Shown here in pieces: positions 10,945-61,339 of a DNA stretch of 64,000 bases (the stretch's first letter is position 1; every line of letters begins with the position of its first letter). A program made the position numbers and the translations under genes. The DNA is taken from positions 1 to 64,000 of the forward strand of contig JAUCBJ010002518.1 of assembly GCA_032718475.1 (NCBI GenBank). The letters run 5' to 3'. Source of the stretch: Nemertoderma westbladi (taxonomy: Eukaryota; Animalia; Xenacoelomorpha). Under the pieces are notes generated by a model that saw only the letters and a list, made by a program, of their open reading frames with translations, made no database searches and was not told where the DNA came from.

Positions 10945-11034
10945 CGTGATTGTGTACCGGTAACTCGTTTAGGAAATAAAAATAAATAAATACTTTTACG
11001 AAAATAATTAAAACTTTTCAGGAAAACAAAGAGA

Positions 11035-11165
11035 CAATGATTGGGAATGTGGTGAACGGGGGCTATTATAGAGGGGGCTAGAATGGGTTAGCCAATCAGG
11101 GAACAGGAGAGAGAAAAGACTGTATAATTAAACCAATCAGAGAGCAGCTTTGATGACGTCACATC
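11035..11165 (-). promoter_or_regulatory. Promoter module: TGACGTCA (CRE-like), two CCAAT boxes, TATAATA, TCATT initiator-like
   Basis: Motifs read directly; the CCAAT/TATA part recurs at 18895-19025, 29030-29160, 26455-26550 and degenerate at 60590-60680. Confidence 0.6.
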
Positions 11166-18803: not shown

Positions 18804-18969
18804 TGTGATTGTGTACCGGTAACTCGTTTAGGAAATAAAAATAAATAAATACTTTTACGAAAATAATTAAAACTTTTCAGGAAAACAAAGAGACAATGAT
18901 TGGGAATGTGGTGAATGGGGGCTATTATAGAGGGGGCTAGAATGGGTTAGCCAATCAGGGAACAGGAGG

Positions 18970-30145: not shown

Positions 30146-31469
30146 GGGCAGTTTTCGTTTGGTTAGCAATAGGCCTAACGTTGCAAAATGCAGTATTATT
30201 GCCTAGTAACCAATTCATGGCTATCGTATGGTTTTCACTTTAAGACATTTCGCCCTCTAGCGGCAGCCTGGGGAACTTCAGACTACTCTGTGACTCTGCA
30301 AAAGATATGGCCTATGCCATAGTAGATGTCGATTGGGGGGTCAAATTAGGTAATAATATATCTAAATAAGCCTCAAACATCTTGCCTCATGGCTCGCCCC
30401 TTAGAACCCTTAAGCAATATAACTTCATAGTTTTGCGGATTGTAAATAACAAAGCTAGAGAAGATGTTAATTTTTAAATAATACGCCCTCTAGCGGTAGA
30501 CAGGGGAACTTCATACTACTCTGTGACTCCGCAAAAGATATAGCCTATGCCGTAGTAGATGGCCACACTGAGGCCGGGTCTATGCCTCACTGAGGCACTG
30601 AGGCACAGACTATGCCTCACTGAGGCACTAAGGCACAGAATATGCCTCACTGAGGCACTGAGGCACAGACTGTGCCTCTCTGAGGCTCAGACTATGCCTC
30701 ACTGAGGTACTGAGGCACAGACTATGCCTCTCTGAGGCTCAGACTATGCCTCACTGAGGCACTGAGGCACAGATTAAGGGTCTAAGGCCTTCAAGCTGAT
30801 CATTTGCTTAGTTTTCTAATTAGAAGGTCGTGTGTTCGAACCCTAGAAGAGCATTATTCTTTTTCTTAGCTCTAGGCTGACTCTAGTGTACACATACTTT
30901 GACTCTCCCAGCTATAGTGATAGTATGCAACCTTGGGAGTTAATGCGCTGTCTTACGAGTAAAGGCCAAGAGATTAGACTTCAGGTTGCCTCCATTGATT
31001 TACTCTTCTTAACTTTATAAAATAACTCAACCCTTATTTAAAGTTTTAAAAATTATGTCTTAGTAGACCAATTTTCCAAAGAATATTATAAAAACATATA
31101 ATTTCTTGAATAAATAGACCTAATAGTAATAAATATTGTGGGGTAAATACATTTATAATACTAATATAATTATTATGGATAAATAGTCCTAATACTAATA
31201 TAATTGTTATGGATAAATACTCCTAATACTAATATAATTGTTATGGATAAATAGCCCTAATACAATTATGAAAGGAACTCAAACAAACAAATGTCAATAG
31301 CGTCCTCCTGCGCGGGCATTTACTGAACGAGAGTTTTTTATCATAGGTCTTCGAAAATTAGTAAAAGCTGGTTGATTTACTTTACTTTCATCTTCCTCAT
31401 TAACAAACTGTTTCTTAATTTTATTCAATTGTTCATTAATTTTCAGTAATTTACTTTTAGTTATAATCT

Positions 31470-34400: not shown

Positions 34401-34483
34401 GACAACATATCCATTAATATAACAACAATTAATAACAGACCGTAAACAGAAGTAAAATAATGTGGTGAACAGTCAGTATGTGT
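31470..34483 (-). repeat. ~3-kb direct repeat, copy A (leader or long LTR of outer BEL/Pao element)
   Basis: Near-identical to 55631-58633 (offset 24161). Confidence 0.9.
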
Positions 34484-41263: not shown

Positions 41264-44200
41264 TTACCGCAGTCCCAATAGTATTCCCAACAAGGATTGG
41301 AGTAAGTTGGGTCCCGGCAACAGTTCGGAGTTCAGGGATTGACCCATATAAAGGGCGGAGCCGTCAAACACTACCCGGAATTCGTTGGCTTTACCAGGCT
41401 TGGGAACGTAATGATGTGTTAGATAATACGTTCTTTCCATTATGGGTGTTTCTTCCGGAACTCGCTCCGCATATCCTTTATCAATAAATTTCTTCAGCTG
41501 GGTTCTATACATTTCCCTGGCTTGATCGTTGGCAGTAAGACGCCGATGTAGTTGCGCGATTCTCTTTTCCGCTAAAGGTCGGTTATTTATAAAGGTGGGT
41601 TCTCGCCGTCGGAATGGAAGACCAATCTCATAGCGACCTTCATCCTTCAGATAATGGGTTGTCGTTTCCTGAATCTGCTTGGCTCTCTCTTCCTCGACAG
41701 ACAAGGCTTTGTTGTAGGAATTAGGCTCTACGGCTTCTTGAGTAAAGAATCGTACGGCGTGTTCATCACGGATTTTGTTATTGTATCGATCTATCACTTC
41801 ATTTAATTCGTCATTATAAGTAAATTGTCCGCCATGTTGATCGATGAGATGGCATAGGTTGACTTGGTTTAACCAAGTTTGGGTTTTGGTGAGGAGATCG
41901 ATTATGTTTTCCTCATCATACAGTTGATTAATGTCGTCATTATCTGAGGAGTATGGAGTTCCCTCAGTTGTGGTTTCTCCCTCACTGATTTCTTCTTCCC
42001 ATTCACTCACCTGATGTACTCTCTCATTAGGGAGTCTTTCCATTAGAGTTCTACGGGAAGGTCCAGTGAAGTACCAACCTACTCTCGTTCTTCCCGCATA
42101 CGTTTGTAATGGTTGCGGTTTTTCTAATGTCTCAAGCGCTTCGTGCGCATTTTGGCCGATTAATATCTGCACCCCTGGATAGTCAGTGTTGAATCTAGGT
42201 ATATTATGTTGCTGGGTAAAATGGTCTTCATCCCAGTTGTAAGGTTCCACTTGGCTAGTAGCAAAGTTCTTTATAGCCACCATTTTTACCGACCTTACAC
42301 TATGTTCTCCTAGTTCATCCTGGGGAGTGGATAACACACCCACGTAGTAATCTGTGGCTACTGTGGATTTCCAAACCTGCATGATTCCTGAAAGGTTCAA
42401 CTTAGTTCGGAACTTGGCTTGTCCAGCAAAGATGTCTTCGGCTAGTTCTTTGTCGATGAATCTACCTGTGCTGCCGGAGTCAAGTAGGGCGTTTACTATC
42501 AGGCTCTTCCCTAGCCCATGGACTCTCAGCTGCACCACAGGAAATTCCCGGATTCCGACAGAGGAAGTTGGCGCTTTCCAAGATGGTTGTCGGTCCGGAA
42601 TAGTCAGTTTAGGATTTTCCACCTCCGATTCAGTCTCGTACGTAAGTGCTCGATACACAGCGGTGTTTATCATATAACAGGATTCATTTTCGTCGGAGAA
42701 TTCGTCCGTGTAGAATCCTTCCATCTCAGAACTGTGGTCAGTGTCGATCACATCACTGAATTGGACATGTAGTTCAGGCTCACTTACCTGACTCGTGCGG
42801 GTTCTGTCAAATTCTGTGTGCAGCAAGATGTGATGTTTCGCGCCGCACTTAGCACACCTCGCGTCTGAGTAACAGGTCCGTCGTTGGTGTCCTCGTCTGA
42901 GGCAATTATAACACAACCGCTTATCCCACATGACATCACGTCTATCCTTAAGGGATTTCTTCAAGAATTCATCACACCCACTCAAGCGATGTGGCCCGTC
43001 GCACAATGCACATTTGGGTTTGATGTTACTTACTTTAACATGTGTTGTGTTGTGCACACTTGTTCTTTCCTCTGGCTTTCTTCCATGAATTCTCTTAGGA
43101 GACGTAGGAGGAGTTGTTACCTGATCTCTCCTGTCACTGGTTCGAGACTTAGATTTACTTACGTCTTTCCTCATTTTATTGACATAATAAGATCTTTCAG
43201 TGTCCTTACCGCTATTCTCCTCGTATGAGGTTTGGCTTTCGCCATCGTCCGTATAACACACTGGTGTTACCTTTCTCCTAGAAACGGGTTTTTCACTCAC
43301 CTTACTCTCTGGTGTCTTCTCTCTGGACTGCTTTAGGAGCTGTAATCTTACCTCTCCATTTAAGAATGACATAAGATCAGCCATGGTAGGGTCTCTTTGT
43401 TGCTGGTCCATCATATAGAGAACCTTGTTGTCCCAACGATTACCTACTCCACCCTTTGGCAAAATTGGCAAAGTAGATGCTACGGCTCCAACAACCATAG
43501 AACTCTGATATTCTTGAGACTTACCTAACCAATCTAGCTGTCTACAGATCTCTTGAATCTCATTGGAAAACTCTATAATCGCGCTGCTAAGAAACTTTCG
43601 GGGCGCTACTAATTTCGCATATAAATACCTAGCTATGTTAGTCCTATTACCATACCTGATGTTTAGTGTATCCCAAACTTGTCTTAATCCATCTGGATGT
43701 CCAATAAACTTTAACGCCATTAACTTGGGAGGTCCTTCCAAGCACTCGGTGAGGAATCTAAGTTTCTCTCTGTTAGATAGTACAGAGTTCTGTATGTTAT
43801 CTTTATAATATTCATTAAAAGGTAACCATTTCATCTCATATCCATTAAACTTGACGACCTCTCCCACCTTTACCGCTTGACGGGCTTCGGTTCTAGCCAT
43901 TTGACGTGTAAAACTTTCTTGAGCCATCGTATTATTTAATATCGAGTTATCGGTATATAAATTTCTCGGATTATGATCAGATCTGTATGGGATATCATTA
44001 TCAACGGGTTTATAATTACCCTTAATAGGGTTTACTATAGGAGTTTCTACTTCACTAGTAGTATAGATGCGTGTAGGCTCCACACCTTGCGCATGAAATA
44101 TTTCAGATCTAATGGGTTGACACATTGTTACATGGGGTGGTGGTATACCCATTTGTATATTTACTAATTTATCGCGCTCTAAAGCGATACTTTGTTGTAC

Positions 44201-44674
44201 TTCTTGTAACTCTAACCTACTCTCTCTCACTGTTCCCTTTAACTGCTGCACAGTACCTTCCAATTCTCGGACCTGCTGTGAAGACCTTTGTCTATGGTCT
44301 TCCAGTTGCCCGAGCAGGCGGTTCATCCCCCGCCGTCCCTTGTCCACCCACTCAACCGCTGAAGCGGGAGCCGCCAACATAGTAGCGGGGTGACGCGTAG
44401 GGACGACGGGAGACAAGTCATTTATGTCTTGCTCGGCGTCCAGGACCGGATGTGGTTCCGGGGCTTGTCTACTGGGCACAGGTAATTTAGTACTGTGCAA
44501 AGGGAATTTAGAGTTAGGTTCTGGAAGTACAGGGGTCTCCATCACCGGAGTGGCTTCCATGACAGGCCTAATTATTTCAGGCTCATCTACTATAGTAGGG
44601 AGTCTTTCTACTCTAATAATTTGGTCTGTAGGTTCTTGATTACTTAAGTCTACATTAGCTAGTTGCCTTCTCAC
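41264..44674 (-). CDS. BEL/Pao Gag-protease-RT N-terminal polyprotein segment (1136 aa open)
   Basis: KFNG..WLPF..EKLRFL..L.G gag core; three Cys/His boxes CALCDGPHRLSGC, CYNCLRRGHQRRTC, CAKCGAKHHILLH; protease ALLDSGS; YLTHH..FRVVFDGS..SLNSELLPGPNL. Confidence 0.92.
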   Translation of the reverse strand: MRRQLANVDLSNQEPTDQIIRVERLPTIVDEPEIIRPVMEATPVMETPVLPEPNSKFPLHSTKLPVPSRQAPEPHPVLDAEQDINDLSPVVPTRHPATMLAAPASAVEWVDKGRRGMNRLLGQLEDHRQRSSQQVRELEGTVQQLKGTVRESRLELQEVQQSIALERDKLVNIQMGIPPPHVTMCQPIRSEIFHAQGVEPTRIYTTSEVETPIVNPIKGNYKPVDNDIPYRSDHNPRNLYTDNSILNNTMAQESFTRQMARTEARQAVKVGEVVKFNGYEMKWLPFNEYYKDNIQNSVLSNREKLRFLTECLEGPPKLMALKFIGHPDGLRQVWDTLNIRYGNRTNIARYLYAKLVAPRKFLSSAIIEFSNEIQEICRQLDWLGKSQEYQSSMVVGAVASTLPILPKGGVGNRWDNKVLYMMDQQQRDPTMADLMSFLNGEVRLQLLKQSREKTPESKVSEKPVSRRKVTPVCYTDDGESQTSYEENSGKDTERSYYVNKMRKDVSKSKSRTSDRRDQVTTPPTSPKRIHGRKPEERTSVHNTTHVKVSNIKPKCALCDGPHRLSGCDEFLKKSLKDRRDVMWDKRLCYNCLRRGHQRRTCYSDARCAKCGAKHHILLHTEFDRTRTSQVSEPELHVQFSDVIDTDHSSEMEGFYTDEFSDENESCYMINTAVYRALTYETESEVENPKLTIPDRQPSWKAPTSSVGIREFPVVQLRVHGLGKSLIVNALLDSGSTGRFIDKELAEDIFAGQAKFRTKLNLSGIMQVWKSTVATDYYVGVLSTPQDELGEHSVRSVKMVAIKNFATSQVEPYNWDEDHFTQQHNIPRFNTDYPGVQILIGQNAHEALETLEKPQPLQTYAGRTRVGWYFTGPSRRTLMERLPNERVHQVSEWEEEISEGETTTEGTPYSSDNDDINQLYDEENIIDLLTKTQTWLNQVNLCHLIDQHGGQFTYNDELNEVIDRYNNKIRDEHAVRFFTQEAVEPNSYNKALSVEEERAKQIQETTTHYLKDEGRYEIGLPFRRREPTFINNRPLAEKRIAQLHRRLTANDQAREMYRTQLKKFIDKGYAERVPEETPIMERTYYLTHHYVPKPGKANEFRVVFDGSALYMGQSLNSELLPGPNLLQSLLGILLGLR

Positions 44675-45442
44675 CGCAGGAGGTAAATTGGGTAACTTCT
44701 GACGGTGTGGCGTTCTTCTACATCTGCTTGTATGAGATTTATTACCTTTCCCCTCGGGATCTGTTGTATCACCCTCATCGGAGGAGGTAAATCCCTGTCT
44801 TCTGGGAGTAGATTAACTCAGTATTTGCATCTGAGTAGCTGTCCTTTGTTTCTTCAAGTAATCTTGTTTCGCCTGAAGGTTCTCCAGCTCTAGTTGGGTA
44901 GTCGCTTCAGACGCCTTCTGTTCTGTCTCTGCCACTGCCGCCTTTCTTTCAGCCTCTGCAGCTGACGCCTTCCTCTCAGATTCTGCCGCTGCCTCTGCCG
45001 CTGCCGCTTTTCTTTCAGCCTCTGCAGCCGATGCCTTCCTTTCAGATTCTGCCGCTGCCACTGCCACTGCCGCTGCCGTTGCCACTGCCGCTGCCGCTGC
45101 CGCTGCCGCTGCCGCTGCCGCTGCCGCTGCCGCTGCCGCTGCCGCTGCCGCTGCCGCTGCCGCTGCCGCTTTTCTTTCAGATTCCGCAGCTGCCGCCTTC
45201 CGCTGCTGCTGACCTTCGGTCTTCTATTTGCCTTTTCTTTATCTGCTCTTCTTGGTCCATCGCTATGAGGATGCTTTCATCAAATTTAACCTGCTCCGCA
45301 GCTAATATTTCCGCATCTAACGAGTCCAACACAAATTTGGCTCCCTCACTATTAGGGTGAAGTCCAGCTAGCCGTCTCCTTAGCTCTTTGTCACCTATAA
45401 ATCGTTGATAGTCCGACAGATAGATGTCAATAGCATCCTTCT
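44675..45442 (-). pseudogene. Upstream gag portion with poly-Ala (GCGGCA)n expansion
   Basis: Frame continues from 55059 across the inner element (KPQKK|DAIDIYLSDYQRF); hexamer run at ~45050-45170; AEAERKA repeats. Confidence 0.65.
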
Positions 45443-45972
45443 TGTTAGCTTATTCAATCCCGCTAACACCCCATAAAGTTATAAGCCGATAAGCAATATT
45501 GGGAGCCACGAGATTGGGCAATTAACCAACTCGTGCCATCCCAATAAGAGTGGGAAGGAAGCACACAATAAAGGGTCAGGGGCCAAACCCCTAACCCAGA
45601 GAGTACAGGTGGAGTGAACGGGAACACTCCACGGGGCGCCAACAAGGGTATCAACCAATCAGAGGGGGGCAAGGCATCGATTAGGTAGTAATTAGGCCAA
45701 CCGTGCAATATAATCAGTAACCTATTAATCAGTAATTCAGTTATCTCAATGCAGTAGTGCTAGCATAGGTTAGTTAGTTTAGATAGGGGAGCACGGGACT
45801 TTTAGTTACCGTATCCCGCCTTCCACATATCTATATCTATATCTTATACCCATCAGTTATTATACACCAAACATCAGAACTCATTCACTGCTTTCGTTTA
45901 CTCTTTATACACGGCGGGGACGCGTAAACTAAAATACCGGATAAATCGGGATCCCTCCTGGATCCCGTCACA
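45443..45972 (+). repeat. 5' LTR
   Basis: TGTTAG..GTCACA, direct repeat of 54529-55058. Confidence 0.95.
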
Positions 45973-46078
45973 GTAACTAAAATCTAGTTGCCGCCCTAGC
46001 TAAACTGTAAAAGTAACTAAAACCAGCTGCCGCCCCAGATAAAAGCCAAACCACCAGTCACCAATCTGCAGAAGAGAG

Positions 46079-47064
46079 ATGAGCCAGTCAGGTGAATCGA
46101 CACCGCCGCGGACCCCGGACGACGATCTAACGATCCGCGAGGCCACGGCGAGACGATACGAACCCACGACGCCGGTCGATGCTACGCCGACCACGTCGAC
46201 GCACGTTGACGCCACGTCGATAACGAGCGACCCGGCGAACCAAGATGTGGGGGGTCGTCTACAAAGAGGGGACGAGTCGGGAGTCGAAAGGGAGAAAGAC
46301 GAGGTCAACGTACCGATGTCGCCGGCCAGCCACAGGCCGAGGACGACGAACGGTCCACCGGAACGGCGACGGTGGGGCCGTCGGTACGACGTCGGACCCG
46401 GAGAGATGGAGGAGAGGTCGGCGACGAGGACGTCGGGGTTTCCGATCGACTTCGACGGGCCTACAACGCGACCCGGGAACTACTAAAGGAGGCCAAGGAG
46501 GGGGCGAGGATAGACGAGGTCAGGATGACAAAGGGACTAGGTGAGTCGAACAGATACTTTGATCACCTAGTGTGTTCTGGGCAGAGAGAACTGGCCGGGG
46601 AGAGAGCGAGAGGGGTTGCCTTCGAACTGTTTGGGCTATGGGAACGTAGGGGTATGGGGCCTGGTGTAGTGTACATAGGGCCATACTTAGTCGATGCCAG
46701 GGAAGTTAAGTTAGTGGGTTGGAAGAGACATGGGGAGGGCGAATCCGAGGTTAACTCCGAGGATTCGGTCTCGTCGGTCGGAGGAAGTTCTGGGAAGCGG
46801 GGGAAAGTTAGTAGGACGGAGGGGCGACGGGAGTCCGTCGCAACCGATAAGTCTGCTACATCCTCCGCAAAAGAAAGAAGGGTGCGAGAGAGTGAACGCG
46901 TGGCGTATAAATTAGAAAAGGCGGCGGCAGAGCGGAAACAGTTAGAGGGGCAATTGAGAGAGCAAACCGCATTATTAGAGTTGGTAAGGGAGGATAGAGA
47001 GAGAACAACAGGGGCAACGGGAAACACACCAGGGAAGGTGAAAGGGCGAGAAGTGGGATATTAG
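46079..47064 (+). pseudogene. Probable gag N-terminal region, frameshifted and truncated
   Basis: Overlapping ORFs 46079-46486 and 46372-47064 right after the leader, coiled-coil-like end, cut by an LTR fragment. Confidence 0.5.
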
Positions 47065-47383
47065 CCAATGGGGGGACAGCATCGACTAGGTACAGTAATA
47101 TGGCCAACTGTGCAGTACATATATTACCTGTTGGTGCTTCCCTATTCAGTTTAGTTTACTCAGTCAGATCAGTAGGGTGGAACGGGGACTTCTGTCACCG
47201 TCCGCTACCGCCATCATACTTATTACCTGTTGTGTCATACTATACTATATATCTCAGACTATTATACCTTTATACATATTACCGAACATCAGAACTCTTT
47301 TACCTTTCACACACGGCGGGGACGCGTGGATAGAAAACCCAACGGATAAACCGGGATCCGTAGATCCCGTCACAGTGACAGAA
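47057..47383 (+). repeat. Internal partial LTR plus PBS-position motif of a sister subfamily
   Basis: Matches 1-181 and solo LTR 60990-61339 more closely than the flanking LTRs. Confidence 0.85.
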
Positions 47384-47384
47384 C

Positions 47385-49994
47385 AGATCAGATACAGGGC
47401 GCGAGGTTCGCGACATCCTAAAAGGATTCGGCTTTAACCTGACAAAATTCCAATCCAGTTCGGAAGAATTTATCAAAGCCATAGAGGACAGGAAACCAGA
47501 ATCGACCATGGATAACCCCACAACAGCCAAAGGGCAGGACATGGCGATTAAGAGAACAGAATCTCAGCAGAAGGCATTGGGAATCGTGTGGGATAGAAAG
47601 ACAGACGAACTGAAGTATCAGCTGAGCCAGGAGGGCGCAGACATCCACACAAAGAGGGGCTATGTATCGTATATAGCAAGGATATACAATCCCCTAGGCC
47701 TAGCATCCCCATTATTAGTCACGGGGAAACAGATACTCAAGAGAGTATACAAATTGAAAGATGAGTGGGACGTAGAGGTACCAGAGGAAATCAAGAAACA
47801 GTGGAGCAAGTGGACAGGAAACCTGGAGAAGATGGGAACATACAACATGCCAAGGGTGTATTTCCCGGATGGGAACATGACGAATCTGGACCTACACATG
47901 TTCTCCGACGCGTCGTTGGAAGCGTACGGAGTGGCACTCTACTTAGTACAACGAGAGGGGGCTCATAAGCCAAGGCTAGCCTTTAGCAAAGCAAAGTCAA
48001 CGCCGCCAGATTCAGCATCAGTTCCCAAGTTAGAATTGACAGCTGCGAGACTAGGAGTAAGAGCCACAGCCTACCTAGTGGATACTATTCCCAACATAGT
48101 GGAGACACACTACTGGACGGACTCCATGGTAGTGCTTGGTTGGCTACACAACGAAAAGACGAGATACCCGATGTTCGTCGCGAATAGAGTGGACGAAATA
48201 AGGGCGAGCACAGAACTGGAACTGGGGTGGCACTACTGCCCAACAGACGAGAACCCAGCGGACTTGCTGTCGAGGGGCGTGGAACGCCACACTTTCCTGA
48301 AGAAGGAAGTATTGTGGCAACATGGGCCACAATTTCTGAGCGATAGGGAGGCCTGGCCGCCGATGAGGAAGGTGGACCCGGGCTCGGAAGTAGTATCAGA
48401 AGGAGAAGAGGGAGACTCAGAGGGAGAAGAGATATACTCCCAGATGGCGAGGGAGATTAGGGACGTGCAACTGTGCAGGAAAGGAAAGGAACTGTGCGAT
48501 AACCCGACGGATAAACTCCTCAGCTACAGTTCTAGTTGGTATAAAACCAAGAAACTAGTGGCGTACTGGAGAGCCTTCGGAAATTTCCTTGCGGGAGTCG
48601 GCAAGGACAAGAAGATCAGGACAACCATAGATCTGGAAGGAGCGGCCAAGGCAGTGATCCGCTATGAACAACGGAAGAACTACGGCGACGAGGTGGAACG
48701 CGTCGGTAACCAACAGCACCTCCGACGGGATAGCGAGCTGATTACGCTGTCGCCACAACTCAATGACGACGGGATTCTAGTAATGAATTCTAGGGTGGGA
48801 TACAACAACAGCATAGTCGTACCACCGAAACCCATCATCATTCCCACAGGATCGCCAATAGTCCACCAGATTATATGGGACTCCCACAAATCGATATTGC
48901 ATGGGGGCACCAACCGAACCCTCACAGAGATAAGGAGGACCTATTGGGTCAAACAATTAAGGAAGAAGGTTAAAGTGGTAGTGGGGCAGTGCCAGACCTG
49001 CCGACGAGCGAAGAAGGAGCGAGCCATACAGGAGATGGCGCCACTACCGGCGAGTAGGGTAAGACAGCACGACCCGCCATTTACGCATTGCGGTGTGGAC
49101 ATGTTCGGGCCGATAAAGATCAAAGTGATGCGACACACGGAGAAACGCTACGGCATTATCTTCGTATGCAACAATACGCGGGCGGTAGGGATAGAACTCG
49201 CCCAAGATGCAACCGCATCAGCGTTCATTAACGCCTTGGAAAGATTTAGGGACCGCAAAGGTGGGACGATCGCAGTGATATACAGCGACAACGGCACCAA
49301 CTTTGTGGGCGCAGAGAGTGAGATGGCAGAGGCCTTGGACATCTTGGAGGGGGAAGAAGTCAGGGCAGCCATGAGACGACGACAAGTAAAGTGGGAGAGA
49401 AGGACGCCTTATGCACCACATACACTAGGATGCGTCGAGAGACTAGTGGGCAGTTCAAAGCGTCTAATGATGAAGCTAATGAATACCCACATGGTCACTG
49501 AGGACGTCTTACGGACAGTACTTGCGAAGTGCGAGGGGATCATTAATAGCAGACCGCTATATCCGGAGAATGATGACCCTGAGTCACTAGACGTGCTAAC
49601 GCCTAGCCATTTCCTGATGGAAAGGCCAGCAACCATCGATATGCGGGGTGTAGACCCAGACGACATACACTCCCGCCAAAGTTGGAAAGTCGCTAAAGCG
49701 ATAAGCGCAGAGTACTGGAGGAGGTGGGTCGAGGAATACCTACCCACCCTCCATAAGCGAAGCAAGTGGAGGAAGCCGAACAGGGAGTTAAGAGAGGGAG
49801 ATCTCGTAATCGTTACGGATGATACTATCATCAACAACCAATGGCGGTTGGCGAGAGTTGTAGGCACCTACTCCGACGAGGACGGAAGAGTCCGATCGGT
49901 AGAAGTGCGGATAGGTGGAAAGATAGGTGCGAAGGACAGAAAAACTTACAGGAGAGCTATAGGTAAATGCTGTCTATTGGAAGGGGCACCTTAG
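47385..49994 (+). CDS. BEL/Pao Pol: RT C-terminus, RNase H, integrase (5'-truncated)
   Basis: GFNLTKF, KALGIVWD, TKR..IYNPLG; HMFSDAS, PKLEL, WTDS, NPADLLSRG; H..H..CQTC zinc motif; DMFGP, SDNGTNFVG, ERLV; WRRWVEEYL. Annotated ORF starts 47508 but the frame is open upstream. Confidence 0.95.
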   Translation, partial: RSDTGREVRDILKGFGFNLTKFQSSSEEFIKAIEDRKPESTMDNPTTAKGQDMAIKRTESQQKALGIVWDRKTDELKYQLSQEGADIHTKRGYVSYIARIYNPLGLASPLLVTGKQILKRVYKLKDEWDVEVPEEIKKQWSKWTGNLEKMGTYNMPRVYFPDGNMTNLDLHMFSDASLEAYGVALYLVQREGAHKPRLAFSKAKSTPPDSASVPKLELTAARLGVRATAYLVDTIPNIVETHYWTDSMVVLGWLHNEKTRYPMFVANRVDEIRASTELELGWHYCPTDENPADLLSRGVERHTFLKKEVLWQHGPQFLSDREAWPPMRKVDPGSEVVSEGEEGDSEGEEIYSQMAREIRDVQLCRKGKELCDNPTDKLLSYSSSWYKTKKLVAYWRAFGNFLAGVGKDKKIRTTIDLEGAAKAVIRYEQRKNYGDEVERVGNQQHLRRDSELITLSPQLNDDGILVMNSRVGYNNSIVVPPKPIIIPTGSPIVHQIIWDSHKSILHGGTNRTLTEIRRTYWVKQLRKKVKVVVGQCQTCRRAKKERAIQEMAPLPASRVRQHDPPFTHCGVDMFGPIKIKVMRHTEKRYGIIFVCNNTRAVGIELAQDATASAFINALERFRDRKGGTIAVIYSDNGTNFVGAESEMAEALDILEGEEVRAAMRRRQVKWERRTPYAPHTLGCVERLVGSSKRLMMKLMNTHMVTEDVLRTVLAKCEGIINSRPLYPENDDPESLDVLTPSHFLMERPATIDMRGVDPDDIHSRQSWKVAKAISAEYWRRWVEEYLPTLHKRSKWRKPNRELREGDLVIVTDDTIINNQWRLARVVGTYSDEDGRVRSVEVRIGGKIGAKDRKTYRRAIGKCCLLEGAP

Positions 49995-50109
49995 CAAAGC
50001 TAGAGGATATTTTAGTCGTCCAAGTTTTGGACTGAGGGGGGTGGGATTGAGGGCGAGACGCCCTTCCCACAAACAAAATAATAAAATAAAATAAAAAAAA
50101 TAGTACATG

Positions 50110-50790
50110 GTAGGTACGCAGTTAGTAGGCAGAGAGTTAGTTAGAAGGTACGTAAGTACCTAGTTAGTTAGTTAGTTAGGAGGTACGTAGTACCGCCAGT
50201 TAGAGAGTTAGTTAGAGGGTACGTAAGTACCGTTAGTTAGTTAGTTAGTTAGGAGGTACATAGTACCGCCAGTTAGAGAGTTAGTTAGAGGGTACGTAAG
50301 TACCGTTAGTTAGTTAGTTAGTTAGGAGGTACATAGTACCGCCAGTTAGAGAGTTAGTTAGAGGGTACGTAAGTACCGTTAGTTAGTTAGTTAAAGAGTT
50401 AGAGGGTACGTAGTACCGATAGTTAGTTAGAAGAGTTAGAGGGTACGTAGTACCGATAGTTAGTTAGAGAGTTAGAGGGTACGTAGTACCGATAGTTAGC
50501 TAGAGAGTTAGAGGGTACGCAGTACCGATAGTTAGTTAGAAGAGTTAGAGGGTACGTAGTACCGATAATTAGTTAGAGAGTTAGAGGGTACGTAGTACCA
50601 ATAGTTAGCTAGAGAGTTAGAGGGTACGCAGTACCGATAGTTAGTTAGAGAGTTAGAGGGTACGTAGTACCGTTAGTTAGAGAGTTAGAGGGTACGTAGT
50701 ACCGATAGTTGGAGTTAGAGTTAGAGGGTACGTAGTACCGTTAGTCAGAGTTAGAGTTAGAGGGTACGTAGTACCGTTAGTTAGAAGAGA
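50110..50790 (+). repeat. Tandem repeat between pol and extra ORF (GGTACGTAGTACC core, GTTA runs)
   Basis: Roughly 20 units of ~30-40 bp. Confidence 0.9.
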
Positions 50791-51275
50791 GAGAGTAAGA
50801 GGTAAAAAGGGGTATATAAGATATAGATATTAGTTAGCAGTTAGTAGCGAGAGGGGGGCATATGAGTACAGCTGGGTAAATCGTGTGGCCACACGACGTA
50901 TACTGCTGTACCGCATAGACCCACAGGGTAGGCCAGAATGTGGATTAGAGAATAGAGTAATCCATAGGCAGTAGTAAGTTGTAGGACAGTAGAATCAAAG
51001 TAAATAAAATAAATAAATAGAATAGGGCTGAAAATTGTAAAATAGTGGCAACACAAGGGAAGTTATTCTAGAACATAATAAAAGTAACGGACAGAAATCG
51101 AAATTAGGGTGTATTTACTAGCTTCAAAATTAATTAGGAATAATTTAGGTTAAAAGGCGCAGTTAAGTAGGAAGTAGGCCATTATCGAACTGTACAGAAC
51201 ATCCTAGACACATCACTCATCTGTATTGCGCCTTGGTAAGGCACCACCTTGCAGGTGAGCGAGTGAACGTTCGGA

Positions 51276-53822
51276 ATGGCGAGTAAGTTGATCAGAAAGA
51301 GAAAGGCGGAGTCAGGAGGAAAGGAGATACTGGTGGATTTCACCGAGAGACATACGGAAGAGAAGACGAGAGGATACTACGAGAGGTTGGAAAGGGGTCA
51401 CGCGGCACGAGCGCTGCAGGATCACTTCCGGGAGGCGCACAAACAGCGGCTGGTCGGGACCTACGGGACCCCGTCGCTAGACAACGCGATCTTCCAACAC
51501 TTCCACTACGTGGTGAAAGGGGACGAGGCGAAGTTCGGGATTCCGAAATACCCGAGGGAATCACCGAGGAAGGACTGGAAAAGATTCATAGAGTCCGTCA
51601 ACAGAGGAGGATATATGATCCTAGATGACGAGGGAACCGTGGAAGACGAGGCGGGCTCGAGACGAGGAACGGCAGGGTCAGCCAGGACCATACTCCTACA
51701 TTTGGCCGCGCCAAATGGGGACATCTTCTTATTCGACCTAGGGACGTATGGGAAGAAGGACGGGCCGAAATTAGACCGATTACCGAAAGCGGTACAAGTC
51801 TTAGTAAGAGAGAAGTCGACGACGAAAGTGGGATCGGCGATTCGCGAGGACGCGGAGAGGATCATCGGTCCGGACGCCACCAACCTCCTGGATATGCAGA
51901 AAGTCTTTATGGCTATGACGGCACCGGATGGATTGGGGGTAGTCGAAAACACAGGCCAATGTGGGGCGGTGGCGATGGGCCAATTATTGGGGCTCGTATG
52001 CCACAAACCGATGGAGTGGGGGAAGTTTAGGGAAGAATACGGGGCAGAACTAGCAAACTCGCTAAAGTGGGGAGCTAGACCGGGAAAGCAGGAGGTATAT
52101 CAGTTCCGCAGGGGAGCGATAAAGGTATATCAGAAGCGATATATCCTGCAGGAGGACTGGATGATGATAAGTTTGCTTAACTTATTCATGACCATGATTA
52201 TCGAGAGGGAACCAGGGGCATTTCTGTTATCGGGATCACCCCTAAGCTACAGGAGAGCCTTTAAAGTGGCCTTTGACGGTCTGGTAGACCACCCGGGGCT
52301 GAAGGGCGAGTCGGTGTATTACAACAGCCGACATCTGGTAGACGGGGAGACAGATACACCGTATCAGAGATGGGAGCAGTTAGAGACGGATAGACGAGAA
52401 GCAAAGCGACTGGAAGAAGTCGCTAGACGGGAGAGGATAGAAGCAGAGGAGAGGGAAGAGGAGGCCAGGACACAGAGTTACGGCTTCGAGGAACAGGCGG
52501 GCCTAGACGAACTTCATTGGACTTCGTCAGGGAGTTCGGGGGAGTCTCTAGGGCGAGAATTGGGATGGACGGTGGGATCGCCGAAACAGTCGACGTCGGG
52601 GTTGCGAACGATGCCCATACCAGCGGGCGCCGAGGGCGACCAACCGCCAAGGAAGTTAAGGGAGCTAGAGGGATGGAGAGCTACGGGCGAGAGCCAAGGT
52701 GGGAAGGGACATAGTGGATCCATCGGGATACCGGGATTGGAGACACTACCAGAGGAGGACGACGACGACGAGTTCGGAGAGATACCGCCCATCGAGAGGA
52801 TAGGCCACTCGGACACGGACTGGGTTGGCGGAAGGGTGGTGACGGCCAGTGGGGCGAGGGCCTTCTGGAACAGATCCGGCAAGCGGACCTGGGTGCACGA
52901 GGAGCCGGCGATGGATTTCGCGGGGAGCACCATCAGGTTGGGCGAGCAACCGGGGACGGCACCACGGATAGTATTCGGGGAGACGATGCCCGAGAGGGGC
53001 GGAGAGATCGACGTAAACAGGGAGACCAACGTAGAGAAGTTCGCCTACCAGCGACTCCACAGACTGCAGAGATCGCTTGGGACGAAAGACGAGGTGGGAT
53101 GGGAGACATTGGTACTCGGCTGCGACTACTGTGGGAGACAGACCCATCGGGAAAGCAGCTGCCTATACCGGTTCCAACAGGGAACCTTTTGTCTCTACTG
53201 CAGAGAACCAAGCCACAGGATGGGGGCGTGTCCACGGTTGCATAACCGATGTCCAAAGTGCCACTTTCGGGGACACTACGGACGCGAGTGCGACTGGATG
53301 AACGACGAGGAGAAGTTCACAAGATTCGAGGAGTAGGCCGACGTCGGGGCCATGACGCGCCAGTGCATGAAGGCCCAGGAGTTTAAGTGGGGTTTCTTCC
53401 TTATCAATCAGGAGACTCACATGGAAATCATAAAGCGGAGGCTACCGTTTACCTACCAGGAGGTAGCAACGGCGGCGTCGTACGCTGGAGTGATGAACAC
53501 GCAAAGGTATCTGGACAGGTGGACGCCAGAGAACCGAAGGGAGTTTAGGGATTTCTTGGCGGAGCACGTACCAAAGGCAATGAAAATGATCCTATGGGAC
53601 TCCACTAGAGGGAGACAACCGGGCCATTCTGAGGGGCCACCGGCGAAGCGATATCGGGCACTAATAACACCAGCGCCCAAGGAGCCAACGACCGGGATCA
53701 GCAAGGAAGTGGCGGCGAAGGTCCGAAAGCAGAAAGCGGATGATGCCAGAGGAACGGTGATAACCAAGAAGCGGCCCAGGGAAGAGGACGCTAGGGGGAA
53801 CTACCCCCGGAGGAACAGATAG
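51276..53822 (+). CDS. Extra ORF: DEDDy (WRN/EXD/MUT-7-like) 3'-5' exonuclease + three CCHC zinc knuckles; one in-frame TAG at 53334-53336
   Basis: ILDDEG (ExoI), LLHLAA..IFLFDL..LPKAV..KVGSAIREDAERI (ExoII), NLLDMQ, QKRYILQED (ExoIII-like); CDYCGRQTHRESSC, CLYCREPSHRMGAC, CPKCHFRGHYGREC; ORF 53352-53822 is in the same frame. Confidence 0.75.
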
Positions 53823-54528
53823 GTTCCCAGAGTCGAGGGAGAGAGACTGGGACTTGGACGTGGTACGCCTGGCAGGCGCCGCGTGGGACGTACGAACTAT
53901 TAAGTACAAATTTAATTAATGCAAATAATCATATAAGTGAAATCTGTATGTACGTACGTAGTGATTAGTAATCTAGAAATATATACGTTCGGAGTAAGTA
54001 CTATAGTCATACAACCTTTCTCAATTAGCTACTGGGACTGGGGGATAACTGACTATGGCACTATGGACGAGACACCAGACAATTTCACACTTCTTGAGTG
54101 CGACGGCACGAGAGGGGGGGGAGATTCGTCAGAAGGGAAGAGACAGTCAAAGTGAGGTTGAGGGACGGAATAATAGTGCGGAGTGCGGAGAGAGTGCGGA
54201 CGCAATTCTAGTGTGGGGGGGGAGAATAAGAGGCTGAGTGAGGGACGAGGAGGTCTGAGTGTGAGAGAGTTAGGGTGAGAGTGAAGGTGAGATAGGGCGG
54301 AGGTGTTGGGGAAACAAAAGTTGCGTGAAAGGTGAGCGCGATTGGCCCGACATGAGACGCCAGGCAAACAGGGTAGCGTTATCATACCCATAGGGGGCGG
54401 CCTGGAAAGCCAAATCCGAGAAAAAAGAATTCCACCCCACACCCGATACTAGATCGGGATCCAGCGGGATTGTAGCGCACTTTTTGGTTGATGCTATCTT
54501 CTTACCGGGAAGATAGCATGGGGGGGAG

Positions 54529-55058
54529 TGTTAGCTTATTCAATCCCGCTAACACCCCATAAAGTTATAAGCCGATAAGCAATATTGGGAGCCACGAGAT
54601 TGGGCAATTAACCAACTCGTGCCATCCCAATAAGAGTGGGAAGGAAGCACACAATAAAGGGTCAGGGGCCAAACCCCTAACCCAGAGAGTACAGGTGGAG
54701 TGAACGGGAACACTCCACGGGGCGCCAACAAGGGTATCAACCAATCAGACGGGGGCAAGGCATCGATTAGGTAGTAATTAGGCCAACCGTGCAATATAAT
54801 CAGTAACCTATTAATCAGTAATTCAGTTATCTCAATGCAGAAGTGCTAGCATAGGTTAGTTAGTTTAGATAGGGGAGCACGGGACTTTTAGTTACCGTAT
54901 CCCGCCTTCCACATATCTATATCTATATCTTATACCCATCAGTTATTATACACCAAACATCAGAACTCATTCACTGCTTTCGTTTACTCTTTATACACGG
55001 CGGGGACGCGTAAACTATAATACCGGATAAATCGGGATCCCTCCTGGATCCCGTCACA
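54529..55058 (+). repeat. 3' LTR
   Basis: Direct repeat of 45443-45972, preceded by PPT GGGGGGGAG. Confidence 0.95.
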
Positions 55059-55063
55059 CTTCT

Positions 55064-55553: not shown

Positions 55554-55630
55554 CGTCTATCCCGCATAACTGTCCCTGGTCGATCGCTTATTTCTCGCCC
55601 AATCGATTTGATGTTCCTCCTCCACAATCA

Positions 55631-58600
55631 ATACTCTAGTGAGTACGGCCCCAGGAAGAATTAGAAGTGGATCTGGATAAACCGCTTCTGCCATCCTTGC
55701 TCCGATCTCGGGCGTCAACTCTTCAGTGTCTGAACTACTAGAGTTATCGTGCCATTGAGAAATAAGTTATCGGTTCGGGTGGTGCTGCTGTTTAACAGCT
55801 GCTTCTTGGTCCCGCTTAACTTGAGCCCTAGTGCCTATAATAGACCTATGGTGCTTTACTAGCGTAGGGTCTGATACTACTACTGTAGGGATGACCTTTC
55901 TTACAGTAGGAGGGGACTTGGACTTTGGTCTCAGATGTTCGATACTCTTATCGAGTTACAGACTGTTCTTTCTAGGAGACTATCTGACAGGGTTTGTTTT
56001 GTGTCAGCCATGATTTATTTTACAGTTGAATGCCTACTACTATAACGACAGTTAAAGTAAGTCTAGTAATTCAGTATCAACTGTAAGCCTAGTAATTAAT
56101 TACCGATACCATTACTCAGTGTAACGTGATATATATATAATATTAAAATACCGGTATATGCTTATAGTATATATATAAGTATTATTTACAGACTAGGTTC
56201 AGTCACAGAATACCGGTATATAATTTCAGCCTAAATTTATATAAATAAATATAATAAGCTTACCGTAAATACCGGTAATGTCAATTATTTAATAATAACT
56301 GAGTTTCTGAATTTTAGGGTTACTTCCCTTTACTTTATTACTGATATTAAACAGTAGTTCAACTGATATTAAGACCTAATTGATGTATGACAGGCCTACT
56401 ATTTTATAAATCTGTTTGAGTTGATTTATAAATATATATATACCCGTACAATGGGTTTTGATAATGTTTGAAATAAATGTTATTATTTCTAGATAAAGCA
56501 AAGAGTCACTACACAGAAGCTGAATGCTCTCAGTGGAGTGCTACTTGTTGGACACTAATACAGATAATTCTACTTTACTAAGTTATTTATCACTACAAAT
56601 TACTTACAATTACTAACAGGTTGAGATTACAATCTCTAAATAAACAATAAACAAGTTACACGTACAATTTTTTAGGGTAATTTTACAAGAATTCTACGAA
56701 CCAGCCTAACAAGGAGTTAGAATTTCTGGTTCTTACTAACTGACAGGAAACTATGGTAGTTGAAACCAATAAAGTAGTAGTAAGTAAGTTGCGTTGTCCA
56801 GATAAGGAAATACCACCGTCTGATGACTTATAGTCTTAAACTCTATAAGTACTACGTTATGTACCCGGAGTGTCCTTACCTAGAGGTTAATTATCGAAGC
56901 CAACCAGAGCTAACGTACCTATTAACCACGTTACAACGCAAATATACTGCCTACACACTAAATTACTTTCGGAAAGCACTGTACTCGAAACCCTAAATTA
57001 GGTACAAGTACTTATACAACAAATAACCAGCAGTTAAATATACTTGAACAGCCAAAAGAACCATGGTATCTGCTGGAGTGACCGGAGCACAAAATCACCA
57101 TTCTTTACCTACACCAAGCACCCCTGATGTAATACCGGGGTTAATTTAACTATAATGGTATGTATAACAAGCACAATTACTGTAGGAATAAACTTAGGGA
57201 ATTGGAGGTTGCGAATACTCGCATAGACTCTGAATAATAAATATTACACTACCCGTGCAGACTATTTAAACAAAACACAGACCAAATGTTGGCAGACTAC
57301 TGTCAAGCCTAAATAAACTACAGTATATGCAGACTCCAAAATGGTTAGTTAGTAGGCGTTCTAACCAAGTAGTACGACTTATTCTTTTGGGGGGGATTTA
57401 CCTTACAGCACTGGATGCCCCCACCTTCCTAACTAGCACTTTATCGGACAGACACTCTACACACACTGCAATCGCCTCAGACCTAACAACAGTTAGACAA
57501 CAATCCGGCCTACAAATTATTTATACAATCTGAGCAGGCTTACACGCCTTCTGCTCAATATTACACTTACAGATAAATAAAACTGACAGAAATAAGTAAA
57601 ATCCCAATAAAAACCAGGGCTGCAGTCCCCGATTAAATATCAAGACCTACCGGTATATAATTATCACAATCAAAATAATACTGCTGTACCTGTAAGTACC
57701 GGTTCGGGTCATTAGGCCTACAGCTTACCGTCCGACCAGTACATTCGACTTTATTGCCTACGGCGCAATAAAGAAACTAAATCTATTAATGTTCTTACCA
57801 GAACATTAGACAAAGTATATTTATTGCCTACTGTGCAATCAAGAAACTGAAATCTATTAATGTTCTTACCAGAACATTAGACAAAATATATTTATTGCCT
57901 ACTGCGCAATAAAGAACCAAATCTATTAATGTTCGTGCTTTTAGACCTTTAGAGGTTTAACCTGCCAATTTTAGTTGTCCTCTTGTTTATAAATCGACTT
58001 TAGCCTTTATCAATTACCTAGTGTACTGAAGTTACATCAGCCGAAGCCAGTCCGTGCGCGGCGTATGACCCACGGTGTGGGAGACTGGATTCGGATTCCT
58101 TGAGAGTGATTGCAGTGTAGACCTACTGTATTATTCCATTGATCGTTACTATATAATCTCTGACAAATATATTTACTTTCGGGGAAATATTAACAGTTCC
58201 TTTAGGACGTGGCGCTTTAAGTATAAAAACAGAGTTATGACTTATACTAATCAGAACTAGATGGCCACAGAGTTTCGTAAATAGCGCATTCTTTAGGAGA
58301 TGCTTTATTAACCTTCACACTACTTCAGACGACTTCACACTACTTCCCACTAGTTCGCACTAATCTGCCGACCGTCACTGAATTTGATCATATATAAGGA
58401 GGATCGCAACTGACACACGTAGGGATTATGAAATAGCATTTGATTCACACAAAACCACTATAATTTAAGTCGCAGTTGCTACCGGTAAACCTGTTCCTCC
58501 TACCTCAGTAATCAAGAAGATTGAGGGGTTTATGATTATTTATCGGTATTCTCCAAATATAACAGCAATATCCATTAATATAACAACAATTAATAACAGA

Positions 58601-58633
58601 AGTAAAATAATGCGGTGAGCAGTCAGTATGTGT
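55631..58633 (-). repeat. ~3-kb direct repeat, copy B
   Basis: Near-identical to 31470-34483. Confidence 0.9.
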
Positions 58634-58735: not shown

Positions 58736-59510
58736 GACGATTTATCCTAGTGGTGTGGGTGGACGATGTATCCTAGTGGTGTGGGAGGACGATGTATCCT
58801 AGTGGTGTGGGTGGACGATGCATCCTAGTGGTGTGGACGATGTATCCTAGTGGTGTGGGTGGACGATGCATCCTAGTTGTGTGGACGATATTTCCTAGTG
58901 GTGTGGGTGGACGATGTATCCTAGTGGTGTGGGTGGACGATGTATCCTAGTGGTGTGGGTGGACGATGCATCCTAGTTGTGTGGACGATATTTCCTAGTG
59001 GTGTGGGTGGACGATGTATCCTAGTGGTGTGGGTGGACGATGTATCCTAGTGGTGTGGGTGGACGATGCATCCTAGTTGTGTGGACGATATTTCCTAGTG
59101 GTGTGGGTGGACGATGTATCCTAGTGGTGTGGGTGGACGATGTATCCTAGTGGTGTGGGTGGACGATGCATCCTAGTTGTGTGGACGATATTTCCTAGTG
59201 GTGTGGGTGGACGATGTATCCTAGTGGTGTGGGTGGACGATGTATCCTAGTGGTGTGGGTGGACGATGTATCCTAGTGGTGTGGACGATGTATCCTAGTG
59301 GTGTGGGTGGACGATGCATCCTAGTTGTGTGGACGATATTTCCTAGTGGTGTGGGTGGACGATGTATCCTAGTGGTGTGGGTGGACGATGTATCCTAGTG
59401 GTGTGGGTGGACGATGTATCCTAGTGGTGTGGACGATGTATCCTAGTGGTGTGGGTGGACGATGCATCCTAGTTGTGTGGACGATATATCCTAGTGGTGT
59501 GGGTGGACGA
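58736..59510 (+). repeat. 26/22-bp minisatellite GACGATGTATCCTAGTGGTGTG(GGTG)
   Basis: About 30 tandem units with higher-order repetition. Confidence 0.95.
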
Positions 59511-59518
59511 TGGATGGA

Positions 59519-60451
59519 TAATTTACTTTTATTTCCAAGGACTTGTCTTAATATCTCTTCTCTATTTTCCTCATTTTCCTCCATTTGTTTAATAAATTTC
59601 CGCATTTGTTTTTTGTTTACTAATATTTGTCTCAATATCTCTCTTTATTTTCATCATTCTCTTTTAAATGTTTAATAAATTTCTGTAATTTAATTTTATT
59701 TCCTCGAACTTGGGTCAATGTCGCCTCTTTATTTTCTTCATTTTCCTTCAAATGTTTAATAATTTTCCGCAATTTATTCTTATTTCCAAGTAATTGTCTC
59801 AATATTTCCTCATTATCATCATTTTCATCCTCTTCTTCACTTTCTTCATCTTCTTGTTCATAACTTTCTTTATTTTCTTGTTCCTCACTTTCTTCCTGAT
59901 CTTCACTTTCTTCACCCTCTTTCTGACCTTCACTTTTTCATCCTCTTCCTGTTCTTCACTTTCTTTACCCTCTTCATGTTCTTCACTTTCTTCATCCTCT
60001 TCTTGGTCTTCACTTTCTTCACCCTCTTCTTGACCTTCACTTTCTTCATCCTCTTCCTGATCTTCCTGATCTTCACTTTCTTCGTTCTCAACTACACTCT
60101 TTTCAACTTCATCCTGATCCTCACTATTTTCATTCTCCATCTCATCGTGCTCTTCTTCTTTATCTTTCTCACTCAAATTTTCTGCATTTTCTAGGGGCAA
60201 CTGTTTTTGTATCCCTTTCAAAATATTCATAACTTTATGAAATTTATTTTCCATTGTCTGTTTTATCTTTAATATATCACGCTCATCTCTCTTTTTCTTT
60301 TCATCTTCACTAATAATATCTTCGGATTTTTTAAATTTCTTTGATTCTGAGGATCAATTAGTTTATCCTTTCTATGTCTTTCCATATGTCGAGATAGATC
60401 GTCTTGTCTCATTTCTTTATTACAAACCAAACAACTTTCATGTCTATGCAT
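59519..60451 (-). pseudogene. Further copy of C2H2/acidic ORF, 5' part (3' part at 31293-31459)
   Basis: Paralogous to 27810-28917; broken at NKSKL by the 28-kb insert; frameshifts. Confidence 0.8.
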
Positions 60452-60780: not shown

Positions 60781-61339
60781 TGTTAGCTTATCCAATTCCG
60801 CTAACACAAACCCATAAAGTAAGCCGTTAAGCAATATTGGGAGCACGAGGTTGATTACCCAACCTCGTGTCACCCCAATAAAGTGGGAAGGAGAAACACA
60901 CAATAGGGGTCAGGGGCCACACCCCTGACAGAGAGAGAACAGCAAGGGCGAAGGGAAGCACTTCAGAGGGGGGCAAAGGGTGCCAACAAGGATATTAGCC
61001 AATGGGGGGAAAGCATCGACTGAGTAACACCACGTGGCCAACCGTGCAATATATATTACCAGTCATTATTATCCCATTCACTTAGTAAGTCAGTTAGTTA
61101 GGGTAGTAACGGAACTCTAATCACGTCTCCGTCCACTGCCACCATCACCGTTCAATGCATTACCGGTATTCACCCACTTTATCATTATATCAGCTTCTAC
61201 TGTGTTTATACTATTATACCCTATATTATATATACACCGATCAGTCAACAACACCGGAACTCTTTTACATTACGCACGGCGGGGACCGTAGATTAGAAAC
61301 CAACCGGATAAATCGGGATCCTTGGTGGATCCCGTCACA
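60781..61339 (+). mobile_element. Solo LTR of a third BEL/Pao subfamily
   Basis: TGTTAGC..CCCGTCACA, 559 bp, 5-bp TSD TAAAC at 60776-60780 and 61340-61344; empty-site paralogue at ~29225-29240. Confidence 0.92.

Follow-up and report, generated by a model that had tools for sequence, protein, structure and literature searches.

A predicted DEDDy-type 3'-5' exonuclease with zinc knuckles between pol and the 3' LTR of a BEL/Pao retrotransposon

What is encoded by the long open reading frame that occupies the position of env, between pol and the 3' LTR, in a BEL/Pao retrotransposon of Nemertoderma westbladi? An earlier note had read this frame (ORF3) as an accessory RNA-processing enzyme made of a DEDDy 3'-5' exonuclease and three zinc knuckles. 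The question was addressed here by computational analysis of a window of 64 kb, that is, the whole stretch of DNA in which the element lies. The element is made up of the following features.

45438-45442 and 55059-55063, flanking the LTR pair: 5-bp target duplication, CTTCT
45443..45972, plus strand: 5' LTR, type A, 530 bp, TG...CA (LTR comparison)
46043..47064, plus strand: two overlapping open frames of 147 and 284 codons, no Pfam family
46993..47383, plus strand: 3' portion, inside the element, of an LTR of a second type (type B), with its end at 47374 (LTR comparison)
47379..49994, plus strand: BEL/Pao pol, 5'-truncated, with the end of RT, RNase H/Pao region, integrase and DUF5641 (Pfam)
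50135..50784, plus strand: tandem array of a 36-nt unit, 17.9 copies, in the spacer between pol and ORF3
51276..53822, plus strand: ORF3, 848 codons with one internal stop, TAG (ORF list)
54520..54528, plus strand: polypurine tract adjoining the 3' LTR
54529..55058, plus strand: 3' LTR (LTR comparison)

The element is assigned to BEL/Pao (Belpaoviridae) on the families and domain order of its pol, its two LTRs, the polypurine tract and the target duplication. Pfam matches in pol include Peptidase_A17 (E 1.6e-38), DUF5641 and integrase in the order RT-RH-IN; identity to the best other BEL/Pao loci is 32-33% across about 870 aa, and tblastn with this pol matched all 121 of the BEL-motif loci listed. 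The LTRs, the polypurine tract, the pol families and their order, and the total size of 9.6 kb are shared with Belpaoviridae as portrayed in PMC8742986 and the accessible part of PMC3118150. BEL/Pao elements are known from animals only, according to the part of PMC3601003 available. The insertion is recent, because its LTRs are identical at 527 of 530 bases (three differences) and a 5-bp duplication lies on either side. The studied copy is itself best described as a defective, non-autonomous mosaic that would need trans-acting proteins to move, since gag and protease are unrecognisable (no Pfam family match upstream of 47379) and RT lacks its front. The frames at 46043..47064 are possibly a broken remnant of the gag side. 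Pol begins late in RT, immediately behind the 3' part of the type B LTR, which is 94.7% identical to window positions 1-188 and 67% to 60927-61339; an LTR of this second type also ends at window position 172. Additional G-rich purine tracts occur at about 50030-50045, 54105-54125 and 54215-54230, one of them just past the pol stop, where the polypurine tract of a simple BEL/Pao element is expected, and they are possibly a trace of the acquisition of ORF3. Just past the tandem array, the spacer bases 50815-50830 repeat LTR positions 391-406 in inverted orientation without a mismatch over 16 nt (E 2e-4).

Other repeats surround the element. It adjoins the broken gag-pol of a second BEL/Pao element on the opposite strand:

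38898-45442, minus strand: second BEL/Pao element, DUF1759 gag-protease at 41264-44812, pol pieces split by stops

This second element carries a long repeat of Ala codons at about 44935-45200. Window positions 1-1693 hold a related deletion derivative with a type B LTR end, followed at 173 by an identical self-pairing word in the primer-site position, and with repeats in the leader, CCHC-like remnants and the last bases of pol; the 36-nt array of the pol-ORF3 spacer recurs in it at 1452-1693. A third LTR type, 76% identical to type A over 288 nt and with no primer-site word behind it, lies at 60781-61339 and is probably a solo LTR. Two 3.7-kb repeats (8045-11749 and 15907-19554), 95% identical and each with a minus-strand frame of 577 codons that has no Pfam match, represent an unrecognised mobile element or gene. 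Two 3-kb repeats (31465-34483 and 55626-58633) are 97% identical, and an acidic low-complexity frame with no credible Pfam match is present in several copies (27810-28823, 59500-60350).

ORF3 itself divides into the following parts.

51483..52235, plus strand: predicted DEDDy-type 3'-5' exonuclease domain, aa 70-320, with D117, E119, D192, Y289 and E293
52236..53015, plus strand: linker, a charged helix-like stretch (about aa 365-400) followed by an acidic region rich in G, S, P and E
53121..53291, plus strand: three CX2CX4HX4C zinc knuckles, starting at 53121, 53190 and 53250
53337..53822, plus strand: part behind the internal stop, 161 codons, its tail basic, with motifs resembling an NLS at aa 788 and 832

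The frame of about 848 codons with one TAG, reported by the earlier note between pol and the 3' LTR, was recovered, and its stop is codon 687 (53334-53336); the remaining five frames over 51276-53822 contain 17-48 stops each. The reported motifs were likewise found in place, namely DDEG at 51624 (D117), KVGS at 51825, D192 at 51849 and YILQED at 52140, together with the three knuckles, a single one of which arises by chance in 2 of 20000 shuffles. The absence of a signal peptide and of a transmembrane anchor also held. The highest mean hydropathy over 19 residues is 1.19, no membrane anchor or signal-like stretch and no RX[KR]R furin site were found in ORF3, and it has a single NxS/T; on these grounds an env identity was ruled out. 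The motifs in the tail at aa 788 and 832 are ones which we take to be NLS-like.

Is such a frame, interrupted by a stop in a defective copy, a gene at all? Six public sequencing runs from four studies contain the stretch or part of it, three of them at least half of its words, and other copies were seen as differences among the assembled contigs of four runs, out of seven listed, aligned to the element. Two of the runs show an abundant and diverse family, with 31459 and 13466 contigs aligned to the element. At the position of the codon-687 stop, every covering contig in the four runs (n=34, 21, 3 and 1) carries another letter. The stop is private to the studied copy, which answers the question of whether the TAG is a sense codon elsewhere, and the part of ORF3 behind it is covered without gaps by contigs from two public runs, one of which bears another organism label and may be RNA. 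Within 51480-52240, 40 of 112 variable sites were listed, a selection of all sites drawn from copies that are related and not independent; 32 of the 40 are third-position sites (p 1.8e-9) and 30 (75%) are silent by hand count as against 30% expected, giving a ratio of roughly 0.14 for the N-terminal domain. No indels are among the differences listed for this region. The only indel listed for ORF3 is an in-frame insertion of 3 nt in the linker, at 52750, and single-base insertions occur just 5' of the ORF3 ATG. In the pol control, all 13 listed variable sites are third positions. Two observations weigh on the other side: only four of 11 listed sites in the knuckle region are silent when taken singly (none falls on a Cys or His), and no contig from another copy in the four runs spans pol and ORF3 together. 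An antisense frame at 51506-52099 shares the third positions and was considered as the selected frame; it is short, and both the silent first-position changes in Leu codons and the sites past 52099 fit the sense frame. Because 30 of the 40 listed N-terminal differences are silent, the sequence comparison supports purifying selection on the ORF3 protein as an accessory gene of a multi-copy BEL/Pao family. The possibilities raised beforehand, that the frame is confined to this copy or evolves neutrally, do not agree with the related copies, which carry ORF3 with mostly silent differences.

The nature of the selected protein is less directly read. Pfam, PDB-sequence and homologue searches with the ORF3 domain gave no match, nor did homologue searches with three queries (full ORF3, the knuckle region and the domain alone). 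The lone match in a library of 50% clusters was an artefact, a 14-fold repeat protein matching 19 residues. No related loci were found among metagenome or viral contigs, plasmids gave one chance match, and the best match to ORF3 in 201 bacterial genomes had E 7e-4 over 47 residues. Profile-profile comparison with hhalign gave a probability of 1.7% (E 0.029). These blank searches are what would be said for another reading, in which the ORF is selected but its N-terminal part is an orphan alpha/beta domain whose motifs match by chance, and two of the controls described below lend themselves to the same reading.

Three methodologically different tests agree against that reading. In the ESM Atlas, aa 70-350 fell at 0.94 beside clusters of PF01612, with 24 of 30 matches in the PF01612 set; the best such cluster has PF01612 on 34% of its members, three unnamed clusters score higher (0.95-0.96), and shuffled proteins reach 0.9 in 4-10 of 100 cases. 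The second test used a profile of our own, built from 54 bacterial PF01612 domains, whose division into RNase D, PolA and WRN-like groups was made in this analysis. The joint profile scores the ORF3 domain at 6.4 bits, which none of 2000 shuffles reached, and among 1014 six-frame windows of the 64 kb the two highest are the ORF3 domain, the next scoring 4.3. With the sub-profiles, the score was reached by 2/2000 shuffles for WRN-like, 2/2000 for PolA, 93/2000 for RNase D and 727/2000 for small RNase D, so that WRN-like and PolA score best and the RNase D sub-profiles do not lift the domain above shuffles. Third, the catalytic columns read D-E-D-Y-E (D117, E119, D192, Y289, E293). The D-x-E of ExoI and the Asp of ExoII (D117, E119, D192) are in register with invariant columns, as is Y289 of ExoIII. 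In the shuffle control, all five columns were filled by 1 of 154 and four of the five by 12 of 154. When the references were mixed, unguided MAFFT brought four motifs into register in all 18 runs; with WRN-like references alone it did so in none of six, and ExoI was misplaced in all six.

Structure prediction added compatibility. Modelled from the single sequence, AlphaFold gave a pLDDT of 34 and a model whose fold searches returned nothing usable; its predicted order of strands and helices fits a DEDDy fold, as do the order and spacing of the motifs, which again speaks against chance matches. On a supplied DEDDy alignment of 35 rows, AlphaFold gave a pLDDT of 68, a pTM of 0.70 and core blocks of 86-93, and this model matches Rrp6, TbRND, EXD2, Nibbler, Egalitarian, WRN and NrnC with tied Z scores of 12-14. 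Because the DEDDy alignment had been supplied, these fold matches are circular and the model would indicate compatibility only. None of the subfamilies WRN, EXD, MUT-7 and Egalitarian stands out from the others. The host DEDDy proteins (WRN-exo, EXD1/2, MUT-7/Nibbler, Egalitarian, Rrp6, NrnC) share the predicted fold at 10-19% identity with no nameable donor, and no HRDC or other host-type domain was seen in ORF3. Overall, the N-terminal domain of ORF3 very probably has a DEDDy/DnaQ-like fold, and an orphan domain with chance motifs is very unlikely. Of the exonuclease claimed earlier, the fold stands as likely on the Atlas, the profile and the catalytic columns; the proposed search of Pfam and of predicted structures left Pfam and PDB blank, a profile score of 6.4 bits and a model that fits on the supplied alignment only.

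The claim to activity is weaker than the claim to the fold, because the acid of ExoIII is Glu. At Y+4, where Asp is expected, ORF3 has E293, and an Asp (D294) follows at Y+5; ExoI reads Asp-Asp-Glu as against D-T-E in the references. These departures could point to a weak or dead DEDDy fold that serves as an RNA-binding adaptor, helping to package element RNA, to transport it or to bring it into the nucleus, comparable to EXD1, Egalitarian or Maelstrom. The accessible text of PMC5408684 treats EXD1 and Maelstrom as inactive derivatives, and it also describes rotifer ORF3s that alter the motif (DEED) and are thought to be possibly active. In ORF3 the four acidic positions and the Tyr are all kept as acid or Tyr, and the catalytic codons are hit by none of the 40 listed variable sites (of 112). 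An adaptor of this kind is accordingly considered unlikely, and judged from its sequence the domain is probably catalytically active.

A likely partner in substrate binding is the knuckle array. In the ESM Atlas it resembles zf-CCHC clusters at 0.84-0.87, which counts as no more than a lead, and the best PDB sequence match is the trypanosome RNase D, TbRND (PDB 7C42), at a non-significant E of 0.27. TbRND also has the highest query TM-score in Foldseek, 0.54, for the model built on the DEDDy alignment. As described in the available part of PMC7797062, TbRND shares the plan predicted for ORF3, with an array of CCHC fingers behind its 3'-5' exonuclease domain; these fingers bind RNA, feed the exonuclease and raise its activity. 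No other protein of solved structure was found to have this plan. TbRND is however a cellular, mitochondrial trimmer of guide RNAs with four fingers behind a linker of 28 residues (same partial source), whereas ORF3 belongs to a mobile element and has three knuckles about 300 residues away. By analogy the two would share a plan and a predicted fold; common descent beyond the fold is not supported.

A second unusual property lies behind the 5' LTR. Belpaoviridae are described with a primer site of 18 nt for tRNA-Arg or tRNA-Gly (PMC8742986). No TGG tRNA-type primer site was found behind either LTR type of the element, and the following words were found instead.

45800..45809, plus strand: word in the LTR, candidate self-primer, 10-nt reverse complement of 45973-45982
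45973-45982, plus strand: primer-site position, 10 nt, pairing with the element's own LTR; second copy at 46013
47190-47198 and 47375-47383, plus strand: type B self-complementary pair, 9 nt

The type A complement arises in 11 of 20000 shuffled LTRs and the type B pair in 18 of 20000. The LTR words of the two types occupy homologous places, and each of the three bases that distinguish them is compensated on the partner side; the cognate duplexes have -8.2 and -12.5 kcal/mol and the swapped ones -4.1 and +0.4. In the predicted fold, the pair probability is 0.99 for type B and 0.03 for type A, which loses to a stem internal to the LTR. The type B primer runs directly into a stem, so that an endonuclease cut would be needed beforehand. 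A conserved GC-rich hairpin ends both LTR types just 5' of the primer site (45950-45968 and 47353-47370). No self-encoded tRNA-like primer was found, as the 64-kb window has no tRNA gene and the element no credible Rfam match. The pairing of LTR and primer site is read as the signature of self-priming of the Tf1/Tj1 kind, in which, according to the accessible part of PMC4600332, the primer site can pair with part of the LTR of the same element; the complement is 10 and 9 bp here. Tf1/Tj1 belong to Ty3/gypsy, in contrast to the BEL/Pao element studied, and no self-primed BEL/Pao element is named in the accessible portions of two open papers on self-priming. The missing tRNA primer site departs from the ICTV description and, as judged from the sequence, leaves the pol-based grouping within BEL/Pao intact.

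A survey of other BEL/Pao loci served as control. Scanning of metagenomes by an integrase motif gave at least 121 BEL/Pao loci. Among 50 loci of at least 5 kb, 16 have an LTR-like pair, and 10 of these 16 have a TGG tRNA-type site. In 15 of the 16, the 3' repeat lies 727-1003 nt past the integrase motif, as compared with about 5.2 kb in the studied element. None of the 121 loci listed (26 of them with at least 4 kb downstream) matched our DEDDy profiles, and for this reason ORF3 would not be a general feature of BEL/Pao in the metagenome sample. Three individual loci were also recorded: L177, a BEL/Pao element in which the 20 nt that follow the LTR (end about 3053) contain no TGG site; L194, in which 5.8 kb separate the integrase from a 90% repeat; and L166, where a frame of 1467 codons with two knuckle-like motifs downstream of the integrase probably belongs to the next element of a tandem pair.

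What might the enzyme do for the element? We tentatively favour the reading that ORF3 is a predicted DEDDy-fold 3'-5' exonuclease with knuckles that would trim the 3' ends of the element's own RNA. ORF3 would be expressed from a sub-genomic RNA, the CCHC knuckles would hold the exonuclease on element RNA by way of the long linker, and metal would be bound by D117, E119, D192 and E293 (or D294); RNA as the substrate is suggested by analogy with the trypanosome RNase D. The defective copy studied here would be mobilised in trans. Of the accessory RNA-processing enzyme proposed in the earlier note, the selected accessory gene stands, on the silent excess and the private stop, and the fold is likely; that fold lacks a match in Pfam and PDB.

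A role on DNA, in which the domain would remove 3' overhangs from cDNA ends, or from intermediates of strand transfer, ahead of integration, would fit the top scores of the WRN-like and PolA sub-profiles (each 2/2000 shuffles) and the NLS-like motifs of the tail. Integrase processes its own DNA ends, CCHC knuckle arrays such as that of TbRND indicate RNA, and the model on the DEDDy alignment matches enzymes of RNA and of DNA equally well, all of which makes such a role highly improbable. The ability of DEDDy enzymes to use ssDNA, noted in the accessible part of PMC5408684, is a point in its favour.

Host small RNAs are another candidate substrate. A DEDDy-knuckle protein, possibly nuclear, could degrade or over-trim host piRNAs, siRNAs or their precursors and so counter silencing; the abundance and diversity of the family in two runs, the motifs at aa 788 and 832, and the presence of host relatives from small-RNA pathways (Nibbler, EXD1) among the tied structural matches are in keeping with this. 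The 2'-O-methylated ends of piRNAs resist DEDDy-type enzymes, which counts against it. The portion of PMC5408684 available discusses the small-RNA role of MUT-7, which would fit counter-silencing. In the same portion, the rotifer DEDDy ORF3s have no clear link to copy number and are themselves covered by small RNAs, two points that weigh against it. We regard this role, which includes the anti-piRNA factor of the earlier note, as rather unlikely.

Within the preferred reading, the trimming of element RNA, the most speculative step concerns which RNA is finished. In Tf1 the self-primer is cut by RNase H, and DEDDy-type exonucleases halt at duplexes. The self-primer is the candidate substrate because an element free of tRNA must make a precise RNA 3' end: it would first be cut by RNase H in the manner of Tf1, or be supplied as a short transcript, and the exonuclease would then shorten it up to the border of the 9-10 bp duplex. 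That this is a BEL/Pao lineage which dispenses with a host tRNA primer, primes itself and finishes the primer with its own knuckle-tethered 3'-5' exonuclease is an idea to which we give a low probability. We know of no exonuclease ORF in Tf1/Tj1.

The earlier note could not say whether such a gene had been described in BEL/Pao elements. The kind is known, as DEDDy ORF3s have been published for the LTR elements Juno and Vesta of bdelloid rotifers (PMC5408684) and for Athena/Terminon elements (PMC5408684, PMC6431247, PMC5718144, PMC6338049), in each case going by the accessible parts of these papers. As far as PMC5408684 could be consulted, the function of the rotifer ORF3s is putative, and Juno and Vesta share with the present element a third ORF that is not env and lies behind pol, ahead of the 3' LTR, with a DEDDy-type domain (predicted in the present case), no transmembrane segment and an altered catalytic motif (DEED in the rotifers, D-E-D-E here). 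Unlike Juno and Vesta, the present element is BEL/Pao (Peptidase_A17, DUF5641), with an ORF3 of 848 codons. Its ORF3 has three CCHC knuckles, and the accessible text of PMC5408684 does not use the word CCHC and mentions a Cys-His-Cys motif only. Belpaoviridae are described with gag, pol and sometimes env (PMC8742986), whereas here the third gene resembles an exonuclease and the primer-site sequence is complementary to part of the LTR. No published report of a DEDDy ORF in BEL/Pao, or of a DEDDy ORF3 with knuckles, was found in the open literature, Repbase and subscription journals lying outside this scope, and the word "exonuclease" is absent from PMC3118150 and PMC5348765. What is new is the BEL/Pao host element, the knuckles and the self-pairing primer site; the nuclease ORF3 itself was already known.

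With these results, predicted nuclease cargo in place of env, as described for rotifer elements, extends to a second superfamily of LTR elements. The differing domain plan, an exonuclease with a CCHC array in parallel to the trypanosome RNase D, suggests that such recruitment has been repeated and selected and is not an oddity of rotifers. Genes of the ORF3 type escape Pfam and BLAST, so that similar ones have probably been overlooked in repeat libraries. The studied copy has an intact predicted exonuclease domain and belongs to a family with an unusual primer site, and the trimming of RNA ends or primers could be separated from the destruction of small RNAs by simple assays. If primer finishing were true, the element would carry a self-contained priming module, and this would be the first assignable job for a DEDDy ORF3 of a retrotransposon.
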